From an uncultured Rhodobacterales bacterium (GTDB lineage: Bacteria > Pseudomonadota > Alphaproteobacteria > Rhodobacterales > Rhodobacteraceae), in assembly GCA_903873585.1 (NCBI GenBank), contig CAIQOV010000007.1, positions 1,779 through 65,778 on the forward strand: 64,000 nucleotides of DNA, written 5' to 3'. Both the position numbers and the translations under genes were made by a program. Numbering within the stretch: the stretch's first letter is position 1; every line of letters starts with the position of its first letter. Of this stretch, positions 27,467-64,000 are shown piece after piece. Under the pieces are notes generated by a model, which ran no database searches, was not told where the DNA came from, and worked only from the letters and a program-made list of their open reading frames with translations.

Positions 27467-29119
27467 ATGGCACAAGACATCGCGCGCGAAGAGATGGAGT
27501 ATGACGTGGTCATCGTGGGGGCCGGTCCCTCTGGCCTGTCGGCGGCGATCCGGTTGAAGCAACTGGATGCCAACCTGTCGGTTGTGGTGCTTGAAAAAGG
27601 GTCCGAAGTGGGGGCACATATCCTGTCGGGCGCAGTGCTGGACCCGTCGGGCCTTGATGCTTTGCTGCCCGATTGGCGCACCATGGGCGCGCCGATCAAG
27701 ACCGAAGTGACAGAGGATAACTTCTACATCCTTGGGCCAGCCGGTCAAATGCGCATCCCGAACTGGCCCATGCCGCCCTTGATGAACAACCACGGCAATT
27801 ACATCGTCTCGATGGCCAATGTCTGCCGCTGGCTGGCGCAACAGGCCGAAGCCTTGGGGGTCGAGATTTTCCCCGGCATGTCGTGTTCTGAACTGGTGTA
27901 CGGTGCAAGCGGCGAAGTGCGCGGCGTGGTGGCGGGCGAGTTTGGCAAGAACGCCGATGGCACCCCGGGATCGTCCTATGAACCGGGAATGGTGCTGGCG
28001 GGCAAGTATGTCTTCCTGTCAGAAGGCGTGCGCGGCAGCTTGGCCAAGGAAGTTATCGCCAAATACGATCTTTCCGCTGGCAAATCGCCGCAGAAGTTTG
28101 GCCTTGGCATGAAAGAGATCTGGCAGATTGACCCCGCCAAGCACCACGAAGGCCGTGTGACCCACACGATGGGTTGGCCCTTGGGGTCGAATGCGGGCGG
28201 TGGGTCGTTTATCTACCACCTTGAAAACAATCAGGTCTATGTGGGCTTCGTGGTGCACCTGAACTACGAAAACCCGCATCTTTATCCGTACATGGAATTC
28301 CAGCGCTTCAAGCATCACCCGATGGTGGCTGACTTGCTAAAGGGCGGCAAACGGGTGGCTTACGGCGCGCGCGCGATTTCCGAAGGCGGTTGGCAGTCGA
28401 TCCCCAAGATGGTTGCCCCCGGTGTCGCGCTATTGGGTTGCACCGCAGGCTTGGTCAACGTGCCGCGCATCAAGGGCAACCACAACGCCATGCTGTCGGG
28501 CAAAGCGGCGGCAGAGGCGGCCTTTGCCGCGATCAGCGCGGGTCGCAGGGGCGATGAGCTTTCCGCCTACGAGGCCGATGTGCGCGGTGGGGCCATTGGG
28601 CGCGATCTGAAAAAGGTGCGCAATGTCAAACCCTTGTGGTCGAACTATGGGCTTGTTGCCTCACTTATGGGGGGCGGTTTGGATATGTGGCTGAACACCT
28701 TTGGCCTGACCGCCTTTGGCACGCTAAAGCACCGCAAGACCGATGCTGCCGCCACGGGCCTTGCGACCAAGTTCAAGCCGATCGACTACCCCAAGCCTGA
28801 CGGCGTGCTGTCATTCGACCGGCTGACCAACATTTCCTTTTCCGCCACCAACCACGATCCTGACCAACCCGCCCACCTAAAGCTGCGCGATGCGTCGGTG
28901 CCGATTGCGGTGAACCTGCGCGATTATGACGAACCCGCGCAGCGCTATTGTCCGGCAGGGGTGTACGAGGTGGTCAGGGAAGACGGCAAAGACCCGCGCT
29001 TTCAGATCAACTTCCAAAACTGCGTGCATTGCAAAACCTGCGATATCAAAGACCCCAGCCAGAACATCACATGGACCACGCCGCAGGGCGGGGGCGGGCC
29101 GAACTATCCCAACATGTAA
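27467..29119 (+). CDS. Electron transfer flavoprotein-ubiquinone oxidoreductase
   Basis: VGAGPSGLSAA, EKGSEVGAHILSGA, RYCPAGVYE, NCVHCKTCDIKDP, GGGPNYPNM. Confidence 0.96.
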   Translation: MAQDIAREEMEYDVVIVGAGPSGLSAAIRLKQLDANLSVVVLEKGSEVGAHILSGAVLDPSGLDALLPDWRTMGAPIKTEVTEDNFYILGPAGQMRIPNWPMPPLMNNHGNYIVSMANVCRWLAQQAEALGVEIFPGMSCSELVYGASGEVRGVVAGEFGKNADGTPGSSYEPGMVLAGKYVFLSEGVRGSLAKEVIAKYDLSAGKSPQKFGLGMKEIWQIDPAKHHEGRVTHTMGWPLGSNAGGGSFIYHLENNQVYVGFVVHLNYENPHLYPYMEFQRFKHHPMVADLLKGGKRVAYGARAISEGGWQSIPKMVAPGVALLGCTAGLVNVPRIKGNHNAMLSGKAAAEAAFAAISAGRRGDELSAYEADVRGGAIGRDLKKVRNVKPLWSNYGLVASLMGGGLDMWLNTFGLTAFGTLKHRKTDAAATGLATKFKPIDYPKPDGVLSFDRLTNISFSATNHDPDQPAHLKLRDASVPIAVNLRDYDEPAQRYCPAGVYEVVREDGKDPRFQINFQNCVHCKTCDIKDPSQNITWTTPQGGGGPNYPNM

Positions 29120-53834: not shown

Positions 53835-54761
53835 ATGTCGAAAATCATCATCTCTTGCGCTATCACAGGCTCTATCCATGTGCCCAGCCAATCGCCCTAT
53901 CTGCCGGTAACGGCGGCGCAGATTGCGGCATCTGCCATAGGTGCGGCGCAAGCGGGGGCCGCGATCTTGCACCTGCACGCACGCCACCCCGACACGGGCC
54001 GCCCCTCGGCTGACCCTGAACATTGGGCGGGGTTTTTGCCCGCGATCAAGGCGGGCACCGATGCCGTGGTGAACATGACCACCGGCGGATCGGCTGTGAT
54101 GACGCTGGACCAGCGCCTAGCCGCCCCCAAGGCCAACGCGCCCGAGATGTGCAGCCTGAACATGGGGTCGATGAACTTTGCCCTTTACCCGATGATTGAC
54201 CGGATTGCCCAGTTCAAGCACGACTGGGAAAAGCCCTTCTTAGAAAACTCTGACGATCTGGTGTTCAAAAACACACCCCGCGACATTGCCCATGTCTTGG
54301 CCGAAATGGGCCAAGCGCGCGGCGCAAGGTTCGAGTTTGAGTGTTATGACATCAGCCATCTGACGATGCTAAAGCATTTCGTCGATCGTGGCCTGATCCA
54401 ATGCCCGCTGTTCTTGCAGTTCGTCTTTGGTGTGTTGGGCGGAATGCCAGCGGAACCTGAGATTCTGACCCTGCTCAAACGCACCGCCGACCGGATGTTT
54501 GGCGACGGCTACCAGTTTTCCGTCCTCGCCGCAGGTCGTGCGCAGATGCCCATGGCGACGATGGCTGCGGCGATGGGCGGCCATGTTCGGGTTGGGCTAG
54601 AGGATAACTTGTACATCTCAAAGGGTGTGCTGGCCGAGTCGAACGCGCAACAGGTGGAATTGATCACCCAAATTGTCACCCGCCTAGGGCGCACCATCGC
54701 CACCCCCGATGAGGCGCGCGCGATGCTGGGCCTGAAAGGCCGCGACAAGGTGGCCTTTTGA
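53835..54761 (+). CDS. Beta-keto acid cleavage enzyme (BKACE/DUF849, Kce family)
   Basis: IISCAITGSIH, AGAAILHLHAR, CSLNMGSMNF, FEFECYD, GHVRVGLED. Confidence 0.92.
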   Translation: MSKIIISCAITGSIHVPSQSPYLPVTAAQIAASAIGAAQAGAAILHLHARHPDTGRPSADPEHWAGFLPAIKAGTDAVVNMTTGGSAVMTLDQRLAAPKANAPEMCSLNMGSMNFALYPMIDRIAQFKHDWEKPFLENSDDLVFKNTPRDIAHVLAEMGQARGARFEFECYDISHLTMLKHFVDRGLIQCPLFLQFVFGVLGGMPAEPEILTLLKRTADRMFGDGYQFSVLAAGRAQMPMATMAAAMGGHVRVGLEDNLYISKGVLAESNAQQVELITQIVTRLGRTIATPDEARAMLGLKGRDKVAF

Positions 54762-55252
54762 GCGACGCAATCTGCCCCAACGCAATCCGCACCGTCACCC
54801 CCGCCGATGTGCCCCGCCTGCGCGCACTGTTGCAGGCCCTATCAGACGAAGACGGCGGCACCTACCAAGTGGGGTCTCAAGCCGCCCTATCCCGCGCGCT
54901 TTTCGCCCCCGCCCCCCTGATCTTCGCCCTAATCGCCGACCAAGGCATGGCCTTTTACTACCCCGATTTCTCAACCCATCGAGGAGAGGCGGGGGTTTAC
55001 ATCCAAGACCTCTACGTCACCCCCCAAGCGCGCGGCACGGGCCTCGCCCGCGCTTTGCTGGCCGCTGTGATGCACCACCAAGCCTGGGGCGCGCGGTTCA
55101 TGACGCTGGGTGTCAGCCCCGAAAACATCGCCGCCACAAGGTTTTACGCCAAAACAGGCTTTACCCCGCGCGGCTACGCTATGATGATCCTTGACGGCTT
55201 ATCCCTGAAAGAACTGGCCCCGAAAGACTTGGCCCCGAAAGACTTGGCATGA
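54758..55252 (+). CDS. GNAT acetyltransferase, spermidine/spermine N1-acetyltransferase-like (TTG start)
   Basis: FYYPDFSTHRGEAGVYIQDLYVTPQARGTGLARALL, NIAATRFY. Confidence 0.82.
   Translation: MSDAICPNAIRTVTPADVPRLRALLQALSDEDGGTYQVGSQAALSRALFAPAPLIFALIADQGMAFYYPDFSTHRGEAGVYIQDLYVTPQARGTGLARALLAAVMHHQAWGARFMTLGVSPENIAATRFYAKTGFTPRGYAMMILDGLSLKELAPKDLAPKDLA
55215..55248 (+). repeat. In-frame 15-bp tandem repeat at the 3' end of the GNAT gene
   Basis: TGGCCCCGAAAGACT x2 plus TGGC, encoding ...ELAPKDLAPKDLA. Confidence 0.9.
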
Positions 55253-56265
55253 TCACCTTCTATAACCCCGACCAACGTGCGCATGACCCCAAGTTCTTCC
55301 TGTCGTCGGGCGCGCCTATGGCGTGCCCCGAACAGCCCACCCGCATCGACGCCCTGTTGGCAGGTGTGGCCACCCTTGGGCTGCAAGTGCAAACCCCCGC
55401 CGACCAAGGCATAGGCCCGATCGCCGCCATCCACCCGCAGCGCTATCTGACGTTTTTGCAAACGATCCACGCCCGCTGGCAACATATTCCGGGCGCAAGT
55501 TCCGAGGTGATCCCCAACATCCACCCCGCCAACCGCACCGATGGCTACCCGCTGTCCGCCGTAGGACAGGCGGGCTTTCATATGACTGACACCTCCTGCC
55601 CGATCAGCGAGCAAACGTGGGGGGCGGCCTATGCCTCGGCCCAAACCGCCATCGCGGGCAGCGAGGCTGTCTTGCAAGGCGCGCGCTCTGCCTATGCGCT
55701 TTGCCGCCCGCCGGGCCATCATGCCTTTGGCGAACTGGCCGGCGGGTTTTGCTATCTGAACAACACCGCGATTGCCGCACAGCAACTGGTCCTGTCGGGT
55801 CGCAAAGTGGCGATCTTGGATGTCGACCTGCACCATGGCAACGGCACCCAAGGCATCTTTTACGACCGCCCCGATGTGCTGACGGTATCAATTCACGCCC
55901 ACCCCGAACGCTACTATCCCTTCTTCTGGGGCTATCCGGATGAGCGCGGCAGCGGCGCGGGCGAAGGTGCCAACCTCAACCTCTGCCTACCCCGTGGCAG
56001 CGCTGATGCCGCCTTCTTGGCCGAACTTGACCGCGCCTTGCACGCCATCACCCTGTGGGGCGCGGATACGCTGGTTCTGGCCCTTGGCCTTGATGCGTTT
56101 GAAGGCGATCCCTTCGCGGGCCTTGCCGTCACCACCCAAGGCTTTGCCCAAATAGGCCAACAAATCGCGGCCCTCAACCTGCCCACCCTGATCGTGCAAG
56201 AAGGCGGCTATCTGTGCCCAGAATTGGGCCAAAACCTGTCAGCCGTCCTAAATGCCTTCCTCTAA
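55249..56265 (+). CDS. Histone deacetylase-family protein, acetylpolyamine amidohydrolase-like
   Basis: PEQPTR, PNIHP, DTSCPI, CRPPGHHA, DVDLHHGNGTQ, GLDAFEGDP, QEGGY. Confidence 0.9.
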   Translation: MITFYNPDQRAHDPKFFLSSGAPMACPEQPTRIDALLAGVATLGLQVQTPADQGIGPIAAIHPQRYLTFLQTIHARWQHIPGASSEVIPNIHPANRTDGYPLSAVGQAGFHMTDTSCPISEQTWGAAYASAQTAIAGSEAVLQGARSAYALCRPPGHHAFGELAGGFCYLNNTAIAAQQLVLSGRKVAILDVDLHHGNGTQGIFYDRPDVLTVSIHAHPERYYPFFWGYPDERGSGAGEGANLNLCLPRGSADAAFLAELDRALHAITLWGADTLVLALGLDAFEGDPFAGLAVTTQGFAQIGQQIAALNLPTLIVQEGGYLCPELGQNLSAVLNAFL

Positions 56266-57242: not shown

Positions 57243-59459
57243 TCACGGGCGGCTTGGGCTGTCCGATAAGCGGATCTCAACAGGCCCCGCCGTCACCCGC
57301 CCAATCAGGGCCGCGCTGACATCTCCCGCTGCGTGCAATTGCGCGGTCAAACCTTCCGCCTGATCCCACGGCACCGACGCCAGCAAACCGCCACAAGTTT
57401 GCGGATCAAACAACAAAGCCCCCCGCGCGCTGGCCAACCCTGCGCCACGTATCCGCCCCAAAAGGGCGGCGCGGTTGGCGGGGGCGAGGTAAGAGTGTTC
57501 GCCCAAATCCGCCAAAGCCTCTGCCCCCATCATCAGCGGCACAGCGTCCAACCAAAGCTGCGCCCCCGTGGCCGAGGCGTCCATCATCTCCATCACATGC
57601 CCCGCCAAGCCAAAGCCTGTCACGTCCGTCATCGCATGGGCGGGGGGGGCGAGAATGGCAGAGGCTGGCCCCAAAGGACGGCGCATTTGGGCAAAACACG
57701 CGGCCACCACCTCGCCCAGCATCAGGGGGGGCACCTGCGCCATGGCCATCTCTGCCGCAAGGATCGTTCCTGATCCCAGCGCTTTGGTCAGAATAAGCGC
57801 ATCGCCCACCTGCGCCCCCGCTTTCGTTAGCGCGCGGCTTGCAAGCCCTGTTACGGTGAACCCCAGCGTCAGTTCCGCCCCTTGGCTGGTATGCCCGCCC
57901 ACCACATCGGCCCCGGCCTTGGCAAAGACGGCAGAGGCTGCGCCCATCACCTCGGCCAAGGTGCGGGCCTGTAAGGTGGGCGACAGGCGCGGCAGGATCA
58001 CTTGGGCCAAAGCCACTTGCGGCTGTGCCCCCATCGCCCAGATGTCACCCAAGGCATGAACCGCTGTCAGTTCAGCCATCAGGCGCGGGTCGCAGGTGAA
58101 GCTGCGCAGATGGTCGGTGGTCAGCACCTGCACACCGTGATCGGTGCGCAAAATCGCGGCATCATCGCCCGCACCCGCCACCACCTCGGCCCGTTGCGGC
58201 GGGGGCAGGGCCTGCATCATGGCCGCAAGCCCCGCCGACCCCACCTTGGCTCCGCAGCCACCGCACAGCGGCTTGTCGCCCAAAGCGTCAGCCAGCCCCA
58301 CAACGGCGGGTAAGGGCAGCGCGGGCGCGGGCATCGCGGGATAATCAGCGAACTTCGCCATAAAACGGCGGTCGATGCGGTCTTTCATCCGCCACAGCCA
58401 AGCCCCCCCGCTGCGCAGGCCCCATTTGTCGGCCAAGGCCGAGCGGTCACCTAGCGAGATCAGCTTGAGATAATCGCGCTGCGGTTGGAAGCTTTGCAAC
58501 GCATCGCCTGTCAGCGCGGCGCGCAGGTTGGCCAAAAGCACAGGGGCTGCGCGCACGGCATAGACACCGGCCTTAGGGCGCGGCGCGTGGGTTAGGTGGG
58601 CGCAATCGCCTGCGGCAAAGATCATTGGGTCAGACGAGCGCAGATGCGCGTCGACTGCCACAAAACCGTCGGTTAGCGTCAGCCCCGTGCTTTGCACCCA
58701 AGCCTGCGGGCGTGCGCCTGCGACTGTCAGCGTGAAATCCGATGCAATCCTTCGCCCGTCAGACAAAACCACCGCCCCCGCCTCGGCCCGCATCGGGCTT
58801 AGGTTGGACAACACCTCGACCTGATAGGCCTTTAGCGCCGCCATCAGCCCCGCACGGCTGGCGGGGGCCATCTGTGCCAAAAGCTGCGCGCCACGGTCAA
58901 CCAGCGTGACATGCGGCGCGGCCCCCATCGACCGCAACCGATGGGCTGATGCCAGTGCCAGTTCCACCCCGCCAATGCCGCCGCCAATCACCACCACCCG
59001 CGGTGCAGGCAAAGCGCGGGCCACAAACGCCTCCCATGCGCGGGCGTAATCGCCCAAGGGCTTGGCCGAGCGGGTAAAGTCGCCAAACCCCGCAAGGTCG
59101 GGCAAGTCAGAGGTGATGCCGATGTCAATACTTGCCAGATCATAGGGCAGGGGGGGGCGGCTTTGCAGGATCACGGTTTGGGCATCGCGGTCGATGCCAA
59201 TGGCGCGGTCTAATATCAACCGCGCACCGGCAAAGCGGGCCAGTCGCACAAGGTCGATCATTATGTCAGCGCGCTGGTAATGCCCCGCGATCAGGCCGGG
59301 TAACATGCCGGTATAGGGGGCCACCGGATCGGGGTTGATCAGTGTCAGCCGCACGCCGGCCAAGGGCTTCATTGCCCACATCCGCGCCACCAACGCATGG
59401 GTGTGCCCGCCGCCAATTAGCACAAGGTCGCGTATCTGGGGCAGGTTTGGGTCTTGCAT
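57243..59459 (-). CDS. selD: Selenide, water dikinase with an N-terminal FAD/NAD(P)-dependent oxidoreductase domain
   Basis: N-terminal GGGHTH, YTGMLPG, GGGIGGVE, FAAGDC, KAGVYAVR; C-terminal LCGGCGAKV, GDDAA, TTDHL, GGHT, TDVTGFGLAGH, FDPQTCGGLL. Confidence 0.9.
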   Translation of the reverse strand: MQDPNLPQIRDLVLIGGGHTHALVARMWAMKPLAGVRLTLINPDPVAPYTGMLPGLIAGHYQRADIMIDLVRLARFAGARLILDRAIGIDRDAQTVILQSRPPLPYDLASIDIGITSDLPDLAGFGDFTRSAKPLGDYARAWEAFVARALPAPRVVVIGGGIGGVELALASAHRLRSMGAAPHVTLVDRGAQLLAQMAPASRAGLMAALKAYQVEVLSNLSPMRAEAGAVVLSDGRRIASDFTLTVAGARPQAWVQSTGLTLTDGFVAVDAHLRSSDPMIFAAGDCAHLTHAPRPKAGVYAVRAAPVLLANLRAALTGDALQSFQPQRDYLKLISLGDRSALADKWGLRSGGAWLWRMKDRIDRRFMAKFADYPAMPAPALPLPAVVGLADALGDKPLCGGCGAKVGSAGLAAMMQALPPPQRAEVVAGAGDDAAILRTDHGVQVLTTDHLRSFTCDPRLMAELTAVHALGDIWAMGAQPQVALAQVILPRLSPTLQARTLAEVMGAASAVFAKAGADVVGGHTSQGAELTLGFTVTGLASRALTKAGAQVGDALILTKALGSGTILAAEMAMAQVPPLMLGEVVAACFAQMRRPLGPASAILAPPAHAMTDVTGFGLAGHVMEMMDASATGAQLWLDAVPLMMGAEALADLGEHSYLAPANRAALLGRIRGAGLASARGALLFDPQTCGGLLASVPWDQAEGLTAQLHAAGDVSAALIGRVTAGPVEIRLSDSPSRP

Positions 59460-59603
59460 CGGGGTTTGATCCTTGGGCTGGGCCACCCTACCGCGCGGCG
59501 CTGCCACATGAAAGCGGGCGATGGCGGCGCGGGCTTGCTTGACAGACCTGCGCTTTTGCTGAACATTTGTATAGCAGGCACATGGCCCGCGACAGGAGAC
59601 CCG

Positions 59604-61625
59604 ATGGATCCCGCCCACGCCATTTTGTTAGAGCCGGTCAAGATCGGCCCCGTCACGGCCCCGAACCGCTTTTACCAAACCCCGCACGCCACCGGCTTTG
59701 GTTGGCAAAGGCCGCAAGCCTCTGCCGCGTTGCGCGGGGTGAAGGCGGAAGGTGGCTGGGGGGTGGTGTGTACCGAGTACTGCTCGATCCATCCCACGTC
59801 GGATGATAGCCCTTCGGCCTATCTGACGCTGTGGGGCGAAGAAGATGTTGCCCCCTTGGCGGCCACGGCGGATGCCATCCATGCCCACGGCGCGCTGGCG
59901 GGGGTGGAACTGTGGCACGGCGGGGCCCATGCGTCTAACCGCATGACTCGACTGCCCACGATTGCCCCGCAAAGCCAACCGGCGCTGTATCACCTGCCCA
60001 CGGCAGCGTGCGCGATGGATCTGTCTGACATTCGCGAATTTCGCCAATGGCAGCGCGCGGCCGCCCTGCGGGCTAAGCGGGCGGGGTTTGACATTGTCTA
60101 TGTCTACGCCGGCCACGATTACCTGCCCTTCCAATTCCTATCCCGCCGCACCAACCAGCGCAGCGATGCTTACGGCGGATCGTTGGAAAACCGTGTGCGC
60201 TTGCTGCGCGAGATGATCGAGGAAACCAAAGAGGCCGTGGGCGACACCTGTGCTGTCGCCCTGCGCATGGCGGTGGATGAATTGCACGGCCCCCTTGGCA
60301 TCACCGCCGAAGGCGAGGGCCGCGACATCGTCGCCATGCTGGCCGACCTGCCCGACCTGTGGGATGTGAACTTGGCGGGCGCTTTGGGCAATGACAGCAA
60401 ATCGGCGCGCTTCTCGCCTGAAGGGTATCAGGAAGACTATATCCGCTTTGTCAAAGGGCTGACGGGCAAGCCTGTGGTGTCGGTGGGGCGGTTCACCTCT
60501 CCGGACAGGATGGTCGCGCAGATCAAGCGCGGGGTGCAAGATTTCATCGGCGCGGCGCGCCCCTCGATTGCCGACCCCTTCCTGCCAGCCAAGATCCGCG
60601 AAGGGCGGGCGGATGAAATCCGTGAATGCATCGGCTGCAACATTTGCCGCGCGGCCAATAACGAAGGCGTCAGCCTGCGCTGCACCCAGAACCCGACGAT
60701 GGGGGAAGAATGGCGCAAGGGCTGGCATCCTGAACGCATAGCGCCCCATGCGCCCGATAAGGTGCTGGTGGTGGGCGCCGGCCCTGCGGGGCTTGAAGCG
60801 GCGCTGAGTTTGGGGCGGCGCGGGCTGAACGTGTCGGTGGCCTTTGCCGAACGCCAAGCGGGGGGCCGGATCAACCGCGAAAGCACCTTGCCGGGGCTGG
60901 CCACATGGGGCCGTGTGCGCGATTGGCGGCTGACGATGCTGGCCAAGCTGCCCAACGTGACGCTGTATCCTGAAAGCGCCATGACGGCTGACGATGTGGC
61001 GGGCTTTGGCGCGGATCATGTCGTGCTGGCCACGGGGTCGGTCTGGCGGCGTGACGGGGTGGGCGTGCTGGGCATGACGCCGCGCGCCTTTGCGGGGGCT
61101 TTGACGCCGGATGATATCTTTGCAGGGGCCAAGGTAAGCGGCCCCGTGGTGATCTATGATGACGAGCATTATTTCATGGCAGGGGCCTTGGCCGAACGGC
61201 TGGCGGGGCAGGGCCATGACGTCACCTATGTGACGCCGCAAAACATGGCCTCGGCTTGGACGGTGTATACTGACGAACAGGGCTTTGTGCAGGCACGGTT
61301 GATCGAAGCGGGGGTGAAGCTGCAAGTGGCGCGCTATGTCACGGGCTGGGCCGATGGCGCGGTGGTGGCAGAATGTGCTTACACAGGTCGCGCCTTGCCC
61401 GCCGTGCCCTGCGGCACGCTTATCTTGGCGACAGGCCGTGTGCCGGTGGATGGGCTGTATCAAACGCTTGTCGGGCGCGTGGCGTCGTTGGCGCGGGTGG
61501 GCGATTGTTTGATGCCCTCGTCAATGGCCGATGCGATCTATTCCGCCCATGCCTATGCCCGCGAGCTTGGCGCGGCCCCCCAGCCCCTGCGCCGCGAACT
61601 GCCGCCCCACCGTGCTGCGCTATGA
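59604..61625 (+). CDS. Trimethylamine/histamine dehydrogenase-family Fe-S flavoenzyme
   Basis: NRFYQTPH, KAEGGW, TEYCSI, GFDIVYVY, YGGSLENR, ARPSIADPFLP, CIGCNIC-X11-C [4Fe-4S], GEEWRKGWHPE; RBS AGGAGA. Confidence 0.9.
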   Translation: MDPAHAILLEPVKIGPVTAPNRFYQTPHATGFGWQRPQASAALRGVKAEGGWGVVCTEYCSIHPTSDDSPSAYLTLWGEEDVAPLAATADAIHAHGALAGVELWHGGAHASNRMTRLPTIAPQSQPALYHLPTAACAMDLSDIREFRQWQRAAALRAKRAGFDIVYVYAGHDYLPFQFLSRRTNQRSDAYGGSLENRVRLLREMIEETKEAVGDTCAVALRMAVDELHGPLGITAEGEGRDIVAMLADLPDLWDVNLAGALGNDSKSARFSPEGYQEDYIRFVKGLTGKPVVSVGRFTSPDRMVAQIKRGVQDFIGAARPSIADPFLPAKIREGRADEIRECIGCNICRAANNEGVSLRCTQNPTMGEEWRKGWHPERIAPHAPDKVLVVGAGPAGLEAALSLGRRGLNVSVAFAERQAGGRINRESTLPGLATWGRVRDWRLTMLAKLPNVTLYPESAMTADDVAGFGADHVVLATGSVWRRDGVGVLGMTPRAFAGALTPDDIFAGAKVSGPVVIYDDEHYFMAGALAERLAGQGHDVTYVTPQNMASAWTVYTDEQGFVQARLIEAGVKLQVARYVTGWADGAVVAECAYTGRALPAVPCGTLILATGRVPVDGLYQTLVGRVASLARVGDCLMPSSMADAIYSAHAYARELGAAPQPLRRELPPHRAAL

Positions 61626-63112
61626 GACGACCACGCTCTACCGCCACACCCCAGCGCCCCTTTGGCCAGGTGCCGCTGGGAATTGCGCCGGTTGAGGTGA
61701 TCTCGACCGATCAGGTCGAAGCCATTCACGGGGCTGCGTTAAAACTGCTGGCGGGCACGGGGATCAAGGTTCTGCACCCCCCCGCCCGCGCGCTGTTTCA
61801 GGCGGCGGGGGCGGTGGTGGCGGATGAGATGGTTCGCCTTGACCCCGATCTGGTGATGGACCTGATGTCTAGCGTTCCGCCAACCTTCACCCTCGCCGCC
61901 CGCAACCCCGCTAAATCCTTGCGCTTCGGCGGGAGGGATATGGTCTTCACCTCGGTCGGCGGGCCTGCCTATGTGATGGATATCGACGGCGGGCGGCGCG
62001 ATGGTACCTTTGCCGAACTGTGCGAGTTTCTAAAGCTGATCCAAGGCATCAACGTGATCCACCAAGAAGGTGGTGGCCCGTTTGAACCGATGGACCTGCC
62101 CGCCGCCACGCGACATCTGGATATGTATCTGGCGCAGATCACCTATCTGGACAAAAGCTGGCAAACCCAAACCCTTGGCCATGCCCGCACGATGGATGGG
62201 ATCGAGATGGCCGCGATCATGTTCGGCTGTGCGCCTGAAGCTTTGCCGCTTAGCTTGCTTGGCATCATCAACACCAACTCACCCCTGCAACTCGATGTGC
62301 CCATGGCCGAAGGGCTGATTGCCATGGCCACCCACGGGCAGGTCAACGTCATCACGCCCTTCACGCTGGCAGGGGCCATGGCGCCTGTGTCCATCGCCGG
62401 TGCGCTGGTGCTCCAACACGCCGAGGCGATGGCGGGCATTTGCCTGACCCAGATCGTGAAAAAGGGTGTGCCGGTGATGTATGGCGGCTTCACCTCAAAC
62501 GTAGATATGCGCTCGGGCGCGCCGGCGTTTGGCACGCCGGAATATGCCAAGGCGGCGCAAGCCTCGGGCCAATTGGCGCGGCGGATCGGGGTGCCGTTTC
62601 GATCTAGCAATGTCACATCGGCCAATGCGGTCGATGCGCAGGCGGCTTATGAAAGCCAGATGGCGCTGTGGGGGGCGATCACCGGCGGTGCACACCTGAT
62701 CGAACACGCCGCAGGCTGGATGCACGGCGGGCTGACGGCCAGCTATGAAAAGCTGATATTGGATGCCGAGATGCTGCAAATGATGCAGGCTTGGATGGAA
62801 CCCATGGCCACCGATGACGCCGCCTTGGGGCTAGACGCGATTGCCGAGGCTGGCCCCGGTGGCCATTTTTTCGGTACGGCGCAAACCATGGGCAGTTATC
62901 AGACGGCCTTTCACCAACCCATGCTGTCAAACTGGGACAATTACCCCAACTGGCTGGAAAAAGGGTCCGAAGAAGCGCCGCGCCGCGCCAACCGGATCTG
63001 GAAAGAGGTGATCGCCGCCTATGATGAACCCAAGCTGGACGCAGGCACAGCCGAAGCATTGGCCGATTATGTTGCGCAGCGCAAAGCCGAGGGTGGGGCA
63101 CCGATGAACTAA
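61622..63112 (+). CDS. Trimethylamine methyltransferase (MttB) superfamily protein, non-pyrrolysine
   Basis: IINTNSPLQLD, TPFTLAGAMAPV, YGGFTSNVDMRSGAPAFGTPE, HAAGWMHGGL, GPGGHFFG; ATGA overlap with the upstream gene. Confidence 0.92.
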   Translation: MRRPRSTATPQRPFGQVPLGIAPVEVISTDQVEAIHGAALKLLAGTGIKVLHPPARALFQAAGAVVADEMVRLDPDLVMDLMSSVPPTFTLAARNPAKSLRFGGRDMVFTSVGGPAYVMDIDGGRRDGTFAELCEFLKLIQGINVIHQEGGGPFEPMDLPAATRHLDMYLAQITYLDKSWQTQTLGHARTMDGIEMAAIMFGCAPEALPLSLLGIINTNSPLQLDVPMAEGLIAMATHGQVNVITPFTLAGAMAPVSIAGALVLQHAEAMAGICLTQIVKKGVPVMYGGFTSNVDMRSGAPAFGTPEYAKAAQASGQLARRIGVPFRSSNVTSANAVDAQAAYESQMALWGAITGGAHLIEHAAGWMHGGLTASYEKLILDAEMLQMMQAWMEPMATDDAALGLDAIAEAGPGGHFFGTAQTMGSYQTAFHQPMLSNWDNYPNWLEKGSEEAPRRANRIWKEVIAAYDEPKLDAGTAEALADYVAQRKAEGGAPMN

Positions 63113-63125
63113 GGCGATGACGCGC

Positions 63126-64000
63126 TTATCCGCCCCAAGTGCGGCCCAAAAGCGCCAACCAGTTGTCGCAGCACAGTTTCTTCACCAGAGCCTCGCCATA
63201 TTGATGGTCCAGCATGGCTTGCTGCAAGGCGGGCAGGCCGGCCACATCGCCGATGCCTTGGGGGATGGTTGCGCCGTCAAAGTCAGACCCAAGGCCGACA
63301 TTGTCTTCGCCCAAGTGGGTGATCAGGTGGTCAAGGTGCGACAGCACATCCTCCCACCCCATATCCGCCGATTGCTTGCCATCGCGGCGCAGGAAAGAGG
63401 TGGCGAAGTTTAGGCCCACCATGCCGTTGGATGCCTTGACCACCGCCAGTTGCCGGTCGGTCAGGTTGCGGCTGGATTGGGTGATGGCATGGGCGTTGGA
63501 ATGCGTGGCGACCAAGGGCGCGGTCGAAAGGGCCGCGACATCGTCAAAGCCCTTTTCGGTCATGTGGCTTAGATCGAGCATGATTTTTAGCTCGTTACAG
63601 GCCACCACCAAGCGCTTGCCCGCATCGGTCAACCCGCCGCCGGTGTCGGGCGACGAGGGGTAGGCAAAGGGCACGCCGTGGCCAAAGATCGTGGGGCGCG
63701 ACCAGACGGGGCCAAGCGAGCGCAGGCCCATCGCGTGAAAGCCGTAGAGCGCATCCAGATCGGGGCCAATCGCCTCGGCCCCTTCCATATGCAGGATGCC
63801 CGAAATCACGCCTGCCGCCATATTGGCGCGAATCTCGGCCACGGAACGCACGATTTTGAACTTGCCCTGCGAGGCGCGCTCCATCCACAGCATATGGTTC
63901 GCCATGGCCCAAGCCGTGGGCAAAGCGCCTTCGGCAGAAATCAGCGCGGGCAGGGGCAGGCGGTAGGGCGGGTTTTCCATCAACTGGTGATAGTCGATGC
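63126..64000 (-). CDS. Membrane dipeptidase (peptidase M19) family; 5' end lies beyond the window
   Basis: HMEGAE, GPVWSR, DLSHM, ATHSNA, SRNLTD, GLGSDFDG; frame open to the window edge. Confidence 0.9.
   Translation of the reverse strand, partial: IDYHQLMENPPYRLPLPALISAEGALPTAWAMANHMLWMERASQGKFKIVRSVAEIRANMAAGVISGILHMEGAEAIGPDLDALYGFHAMGLRSLGPVWSRPTIFGHGVPFAYPSSPDTGGGLTDAGKRLVVACNELKIMLDLSHMTEKGFDDVAALSTAPLVATHSNAHAITQSSRNLTDRQLAVVKASNGMVGLNFATSFLRRDGKQSADMGWEDVLSHLDHLITHLGEDNVGLGSDFDGATIPQGIGDVAGLPALQQAMLDHQYGEALVKKLCCDNWLALLGRTWGG

Follow-up and report, generated by a model that had tools for sequence, protein, structure and literature searches.

In this study we analyzed a 64,000-nucleotide stretch of DNA from an uncultured Rhodobacterales bacterium (GenBank assembly GCA_903873585.1, contig CAIQOV010000007.1, positions 1,779 to 65,778; here called the window), which carries a gene for an iron-sulfur flavoprotein of the trimethylamine dehydrogenase (TMADH) and histamine dehydrogenase (HADH) family (59604-61625, plus strand; ATG start, TGA stop; 673 amino acids). 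In this protein, the cysteine that forms the covalent bond to flavin mononucleotide (FMN) in TMADH is replaced by alanine. We found that the alanine is invariant throughout a group of freshwater bacteria, the Paracoccaceae relatives of this strain, and that the flavoenzyme gene is translationally coupled to a gene encoding a methyltransferase of the MttB superfamily. The explanation that we favor, with moderate confidence, is that the protein is a working amine dehydrogenase that lost the cysteine secondarily, holds its FMN noncovalently, and acts with its MttB partner on a methylated amine. As part of that explanation, the Cys-to-Ala change would be tolerated or adaptive variation within an older module and would not mark a new type of reaction.

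A natural alanine at the flavin-linking position

The translation of 59604-61625 begins with MDPAHAILLEPVKIGPVTAPNRFYQTPHATGFG, and residues 21 to 32 form the FMN-site motif NRFYQTPHATGF (59664-59699, plus strand). HMMER aligned residues 2 to 105 of the query to residues 3 to 106 of TMADH (1djq/1djn) without a gap; Ala29, encoded by GCC at 59688-59690, is therefore the equivalent of Cys30, the residue that carries the 6-S-cysteinyl-FMN of TMADH. The motifs that surround the active site and the cluster are retained. TEY (59772-59780) contains Tyr59, the counterpart of Tyr60 in the substrate bowl of TMADH, and VYVYAGHDY (60096-60122) supplies Tyr168, His171, and Tyr173 at the positions of Tyr169, His172, and Tyr174. 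Arg221 (60264-60266) corresponds to Arg222, which contacts N1/C2=O of the flavin, and Asp264 to Asp267, so that the Tyr169-His172-Asp267 triad and Arg222 of TMADH are present as Y168, H171, D264, and R221. Asp264 lies in a pocket loop (GAL259-261...Asp264; 60378-60395) in which Leu261 takes the place of TMADH Trp264. The [4Fe-4S] motif, C342-x2-C345-x2-C348...C360 (CIGCNICRAANNEGVSLRC; 60627-60683), includes Arg349 and Asn352, the latter at the position of Trp355 in TMADH and Asp358 in HADH. A GAGPAG sequence at residues 391 to 396 (60774-60791) forms the dinucleotide (ADP)-binding loop of the middle domain. All of these features lie on the plus strand. The sequence-only reading of this DNA, which had reported the alanine together with intact TEY, VYVY..H.Y, and Fe-S motifs, was therefore correct on both counts.

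Database and structural comparisons placed the protein in the same family. Pfam detected Oxidored_FMN (PF00724, 5.5e-67), Pyr_redox_2 (PF07992), and OYE-like_second_a-b (PF22620), and no NCBIfam equivalog scored above its cut-off. The best match among PDB sequences was 3k30 (1e-194), followed by 6de6, 6l6j (2.7e-187), and TMADH (1.5e-158). In a fold search, an AlphaFold 2 (AF2) model computed from 40 input sequences (pLDDT 93.7) aligned to 3K30, 6DE6, 6L6J, and TMADH (2tmd) with TM scores of 0.95 to 0.97, the highest being that of 3k30 (0.97). The protein has the OYE-like FMN TIM barrel, two Rossmann-like domains, four Fe-S cysteines, catalytic triad, and GxGxxG pattern of the TMADH, dimethylamine dehydrogenase, and HADH family. 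The family feature that it lacks is the flavin-linking cysteine, which is likewise absent from the accepted member HisD (6L6J).

The closest relatives in both sequence and structure are the histamine dehydrogenases of Nocardioides simplex (3K30) and Rhizobium sp. 4-9 (6DE6), at 48% identity. The query shares with HADH Glu341 and Arg437, where TMADH has Val344 and Tyr442, residues at which TMADH docks its acceptor, electron transfer flavoprotein (ETF). In contrast, HADH retains the flavin-binding cysteine (PHCNG in both 3K30 and 6DE6) and has Gln, Trp, and Asp at the positions of Tyr59, Leu261, and Asn352, respectively. TMADH of Methylophilus methylotrophus W3A1 (2TMD) is 40% identical and agrees with the query at Tyr60, Tyr169, His172, Tyr174, Arg222, Asp267, and the four cluster cysteines; its C30A mutant (1DJQ) is the engineered laboratory counterpart of the natural Ala29 sequence. 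However, only Tyr59 remains of the aromatic bowl Tyr60/Trp264/Trp355 by which a strict TMADH is recognized. Since Leu261 and Asn352 replace the two tryptophans, trimethylamine is an unlikely substrate. Judged by its sequence, the protein is an amine dehydrogenase of the TMADH/HADH family and is neither a trimethylamine dehydrogenase nor an NAD(P)H-linked reductase.

A natural alanine at this position has a precedent in the structure 6L6J, which the PDB entry title recovered by the fold search identifies as HisD, the 6-hydroxypseudooxynicotine amine oxidase of Pseudomonas geniculata N1 (NRFYVVPHATAMG; PHATAMG, against PHATGFG in the query). According to a review (PMC7688666), that structure shows a planar isoalloxazine and an FMN with no covalent bond to the protein, in contrast to TMADH and HADH; the review adds that Pno, which is 82% identical to HisD, reduces EtfAB. 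The query and HisD/Pno (6L6J; Agrobacterium tumefaciens S33) have in common the three-domain fold (TM 0.95, 48% identity), the Fe-S motif, and the natural alanine. They differ in that HisD/Pno belongs to another branch of the family, with a separate loss of the cysteine and different pocket residues, and in that it is encoded in a nicotine degradation cluster, whereas the query gene is coupled to mttB with no nicotine genes nearby. Hence, the query matches the HisD/Pno type in its alanine but not in its clade or its catabolic context. One Ala-type representative (P0128, NRFYAVPHATG), not confirmed as HisD/Pno, branches away from the clade of the query in our trees, which contained no PDB sequences and in which HisD itself was not a row.

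Alanine and glycine are recurrent at this position. The position was sampled in family representatives (clusters at 50% identity; the family has roughly 10,000 members at E ≤ 1e-10). Of those with a readable N terminus, 40 have Cys at the Cys30 equivalent, 9 have Ala, 7 have Gly, and 8 have another residue. A 44-row tree placed at least five separate non-Cys lineages inside the TMADH/HADH core clade (support, 100). A noncovalent subfamily is plausible, but the concept is already known, and because these forms are recurrent and one has been crystallized, it is less new than the sequence-only reading implied. The replacement by itself would not surprise a specialist, since HisD/Pno is already a noncovalent member. 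For the enzyme described here, noncovalent FMN is the most likely state, given that the only known link in the family uses Cys30, that we detected no substitute Cys, His, or Tyr (see below), and that HisD, with its natural alanine, is reported to bind FMN noncovalently.

Fixation and origin of the alanine

To describe conservation, we defined the Ala clade as the query and its 120 closest database homologues (n = 121; 73 to 97% identity to the query). NRFYQTPHATG was identical in all 121 members, of which those with a name belong to Cypionkella, Tabrizicola, Stagnihabitans, Rhodobacter, and other Paracoccaceae and many are from metagenomes, and cysteines C342, C345, C348, and C360 were invariant throughout. 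The distinct Ala subfamily proposed in the sequence-only reading is therefore real. Genomes were sampled from Paracoccaceae (301) and Alphaproteobacteria (401). Orthologues (≥73% identity) were detected in 4 of the 301 Paracoccaceae genomes, and none was found outside this family among the genomes searched. When the other best TMADH-like genes with a readable site were considered, the residue was Cys in 29 Paracoccaceae genes and in 23 of 24 genes elsewhere.

The polarity of the change was read from trees built with FastTree (72 rows) and IQ-TREE (40 rows), both of which recovered the Ala clade with support of 100. It was nested within a 24-row clade in the IQ-TREE tree (support, 95) and within the matching 34-row clade in the FastTree tree (support, 100). 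This enclosing clade is entirely of the Cys type apart from the Ala clade and one other Ala lineage. The closest group, of 13 to 14 rows (SH-like support of 91 in FastTree, SH-aLRT of 81 in IQ-TREE), includes five Cys-type genes and the second Ala lineage, which lacks an MttB partner (loci L076 and L012, the latter identical to P0125). Parsimony on this placement among Cys-type enzymes makes a secondary loss of the cysteine the most likely origin of the alanine in this clade.

A conserved pair with an MttB-family methyltransferase

The gene that follows the flavoenzyme encodes a nonpyrrolysine methyltransferase of the MttB superfamily (61622-63112, plus strand; Pfam MTTB, 2.2e-183). Its ATG overlaps the TGA of the flavoenzyme gene (ATGA at 61622-61625), and the two genes are translationally coupled. 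An MttB 66 to 70% identical to that of the window lies directly after the flavoenzyme in all five of the other orthologous loci; with the window included, adjacency holds in six of six. The five Cys-type sisters also adjoin an MttB, 52 to 56% identical to the window's, whereas the four MttB paralogues encoded elsewhere in this genome are only 24 to 43% identical to it. A few more-distant Cys-type paralogues are paired with other MttB subfamilies (24 to 43% identity). Because the Cys-type sisters pair with the same MttB subfamily, the flavoenzyme-MttB pair predates the loss of the cysteine, and this is the main argument against interpreting the alanine as evidence of a new reaction or of a reversed direction. 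Moreover, the query and these sisters share the pocket residues Y59, C60, H63, W104, H105, R349, N352, N353, N263, and D264. Within the module clade, the MttB-linked members have Arg349 in common, and Lys266 occurs only in the Ala clade; from these two residues we infer only that a carboxylate-bearing substrate would suit the pocket.

An apparent fusion of the two proteins at locus L015 (a 1,172-amino-acid frame) was rejected, because the frame runs through a TAA that is a real stop and separates two in-frame genes. In one long representative (P0129), the additional part did not match MttB, although no dedicated search for fused forms was run. No sigma-70-like promoter was found in 59300-63400, and terminator-like sites occurred there at chance level.

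We propose the following sequence of events. MttB would demethylate a quaternary amine, with the methyl group going first to a corrinoid protein whose gene lies elsewhere and then to tetrahydrofolate, and the flavoenzyme would next oxidize the resulting tertiary or secondary amine. Within the flavoenzyme, predicted to consist of the FMN TIM barrel, the [4Fe-4S] cluster, and a vestigial ADP-binding domain, FMN would take two electrons from the amine C-N bond by the mechanism usual for the family. Single electrons would then pass by way of the Fe-S cluster to an acceptor outside the enzyme, probably EtfAB, and from there reach ETF-ubiquinone oxidoreductase (ETF-QO) and the quinone pool; the imine product would hydrolyze. 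In this way, the pair may remove or oxidize successive N-alkyl groups of one methylated amine, perhaps one that bears a carboxylate. Carnitine or glycine betaine, proline betaine or N-methylproline, and acetylated polyamines were considered as substrates from the neighboring genes, and none was supported well enough to be retained.

Components that such a route would draw on are encoded in the genome. There is one etfAB pair (contig C54) and an ETF-QO. No corrinoid protein gene lies beside the flavoenzyme-MttB pair; a stand-alone B12-binding protein (241-amino-acid frame) and a stand-alone pterin-binding protein are encoded elsewhere. In Ruegeria pomeroyi, the methyltransferase MtgB works with MtgC and MtgD, which are encoded in trans and also serve methionine synthesis (PMC12478193). 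That aerobic glycine betaine demethylation system shows how an MttB-family gene can work without an adjacent corrinoid gene, and the stand-alone proteins found here match it. It differs in that no TMADH-like partner is described (PMC12478193). An ETF-QO gene was observed in the window at about 28802-29107 (G000:C7:30580-30885), on the same contig as the pair and some 30 kb upstream of it.

The genes around the pair are conserved in part. A BKACE-GNAT-deacetylase operon (53835-56265, plus strand; Pfam assignments) adjoins the pair in the window and at loci L011, L056, and L057, that is, in four of six genomes. On the other side, an SBP5/Dpp-type ABC transporter operon of convergent orientation, which extends past the window, ends with a peptidase M19 gene, whose 3' part lies at 63126-64000 (minus strand). 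The window, L056, and L057 all carry this transporter, the M19 dipeptidase, and an alpha/beta hydrolase close to the pair. In Cypionkella, the pair is flanked instead by another Dpp-type transporter, accompanied by a peptidase S15, which also flanks the second Ala lineage. In tblastn searches, the neighbors of the Ala clade were absent from the Cys-type modules, with the exception of one Rieske gene. This arrangement points to one catabolic route, whose starting compound would be an amine that is imported and possibly conjugated. The BKACE operon, the flavoenzyme-MttB pair, and the SBP5/Dpp-M19-hydrolase set recur together in several genera and look like one uncharacterized catabolic island.

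Further observations concern genes at a greater distance or in related modules. The gene divergent from and upstream of the flavoenzyme (57243-59459, minus strand) encodes a protein in which a pyridine nucleotide-disulfide oxidoreductase is fused to SelD (TIGR03169, 495 bits; TIGR00476, 269 bits; each score exceeds its cut-off). About 10 kb beyond the end of the window, the same contig carries a Rieske/ring-hydroxylating-type oxygenase gene (G000:C7; L008, 9363-10535), and a Rieske gene 33% identical to it directly adjoins the mttB of a Cys-type module (L083). In another Cys-type flavoenzyme-MttB module, a gene for a dCache_1 methyl-accepting chemotaxis protein (L082, 12545-14635, minus strand) is immediately downstream and convergent; this chemoreceptor could serve as a sensor for the same amine as the module. 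Most of the other open reading frames chosen at L082 had no Pfam match and are probably wrong-strand frames, which left the chemoreceptor as the one informative neighbor at this locus. The genome that contains the window also has a Cys-type paralogue (G000:C49:120499-122508; L002/L009; motif NRFYQVPHCNGGG), nearly identical to the Rhizobium histamine dehydrogenase over the N-terminal stretch compared and located next to an amidohydrolase (Amidohydro_3) gene and a LysR regulator gene. Elsewhere in Paracoccaceae, TMADH-like paralogues occur in head-to-tail tandems of two or three (G165:C252:2141-8278, G046:C4:73428-79540, and G072:C4:29499-33588), and all copies whose N terminus was read are of the Cys type.

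Alternative explanations and significance

Attributing the alanine to a mutation private to this strain, to an error of sequencing, or to gene decay is refuted, and with it the doubt raised alongside the sequence-only reading that the change might be absent from close homologues. This strain's enzyme does carry one private one-base change at a conserved site, R136C (TGC, 60009-60011): position 136 is Arg in 119 of the 121 clade members, including the 97%-identical P0005, and in 128 of 139 alignment rows of the clade and its relatives. Ala29, however, is common to the whole clade, which includes sequences from many metagenomes, and five orthologous loci from other genomes encode it with GCC or GCG. 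The GCC codon is two substitutions from TGC or TGT, so a single-base error is no explanation. Comparison with four orthologues gave dN/dS ratios of 0.16 to 0.18 (approximately 0.17) at dS values of 1.0 to 1.2; the gene is therefore under purifying selection, and the alanine has been kept across a long divergence. All cofactor motifs are intact. We regard it as very improbable that the protein is instead a reductase resembling 2,4-dienoyl-CoA reductase (FadH) or the enoate reductases, in which noncovalent FMN is normal and the alanine would need no further account. These enzymes do belong to the same superfamily: the AF2 model aligned to naphthoyl-CoA reductase (NCR) and FadH with TM scores of 0.84 to 0.87, and the distant outgroup of the 44-row tree, at about 30% identity, never carries Cys. 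Nevertheless, identity to NCR and FadH is 22 to 24%, against 48% to HADH and HisD; the sequence match to FadH ends at query residue 484; and NCBIfam scores for FadH, enoate reductase, NCR, and BaiCD-type reductases were far below their cut-offs. The Rossmann-like stretch of the last domain (residues 513 to 545, VVIYDDEHYFMAGALAERLA; 61140-61238) contains no GxGxxG, as is also the case in TMADH and HADH, while the Tyr-His-Asp triad is kept and the clade is nested within Cys-type amine dehydrogenases. A reductase direction, which the sequence-only reading had entertained, finds no second GxGxxG for NAD(P)H to bind, and the closest characterized relatives all oxidize amines.

Equally hard to credit is a flavin still covalently bound through another residue or linkage. 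We found no Cys, His, or Tyr that is fixed in the Ala clade but missing from its Cys-type relatives, the conserved C56 and C60 are present in Cys-type enzymes too, and HisD, with the same natural alanine, is reported as noncovalent. To our knowledge, 6-S-cysteinyl is the only covalent flavin link described in this fold. An unlikely but weightier alternative, a moderate version of the sequence-only reading, holds that the alanine marks a functionally new subfamily, in which loss of the link and a changed flavin potential were selected together with pocket changes for a substrate other than that of the Cys-type MttB-linked sisters. In its favor, A29, D172, M204, L261, L401, and M445 occur in 121 of 121 members and in none of the 12 Cys-type sequences compared; the Ala clade differs from the Cys/MttB sisters in the pocket at T26, W34, D172, and K266 and by the one-residue insertion at GAL259-261; and it has conserved neighbors of its own (BKACE-GNAT-deacetylase; Dpp-type ABC transporter with M19 and hydrolase) that the Cys-type modules lack. 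In contrast, the MttB subfamily and many pocket residues are shared with those sisters, no residue covaried consistently with loss of the cysteine across independent Ala lineages, and the Ala-type HisD performs ordinary amine oxidation. The claim that the alanine itself brought a different substrate thus loses its footing: the nearest relatives are Cys-type enzymes with the same MttB subfamily, and it is the replacement of Trp264 by Leu and of Trp355 by Asn that excludes trimethylamine.

Several points nonetheless weigh against the amine dehydrogenase with secondarily lost cysteine that we favor. The ETF-docking residues of TMADH are not conserved (V344 to E341, Y442 to R437), as in HADH, for which we know of no established physiological electron acceptor. 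This particular strain has Cys136 at a nearly invariant Arg site, and the 13-row module clade is only moderately supported (SH-aLRT 81; FastTree 91). The pocket changes of the Ala clade mean that its substrate may have shifted together with the loss of the cysteine. Finally, what has been shown for the Ala clade is its sequence, conservation, phylogenetic position, synteny, and fold, and the FMN state, the acceptor, the class of substrate, and the order of the steps are inferred.

Arguments about the role of the covalent 6-S-cysteinyl link have relied mainly on engineered mutants such as C30A. A comparative test of the link becomes possible with natural lineages in which the cysteine is missing but the rest of the catalytic machinery is intact, and the Cys-bearing sisters in the same MttB-coupled module make matched Cys/Ala pairs available for it. 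We put forward as a tentative possibility that the Ala clade is a natural test case for the purpose of 6-S-cysteinyl-FMN, in which the link was lost along with remodeling of the pocket (D172, GAL259-261, and K266), and that the pair and its syntenic genes constitute a new aerobic route for a methylated amine with no assigned pathway. If so, the route would combine corrinoid-dependent and flavin-dependent N-demethylation. The flavoenzyme-MttB pair is an uncharacterized conserved unit that freshwater Paracoccaceae probably use to break down a methylated amine, and the search for its substrate would be worthwhile.

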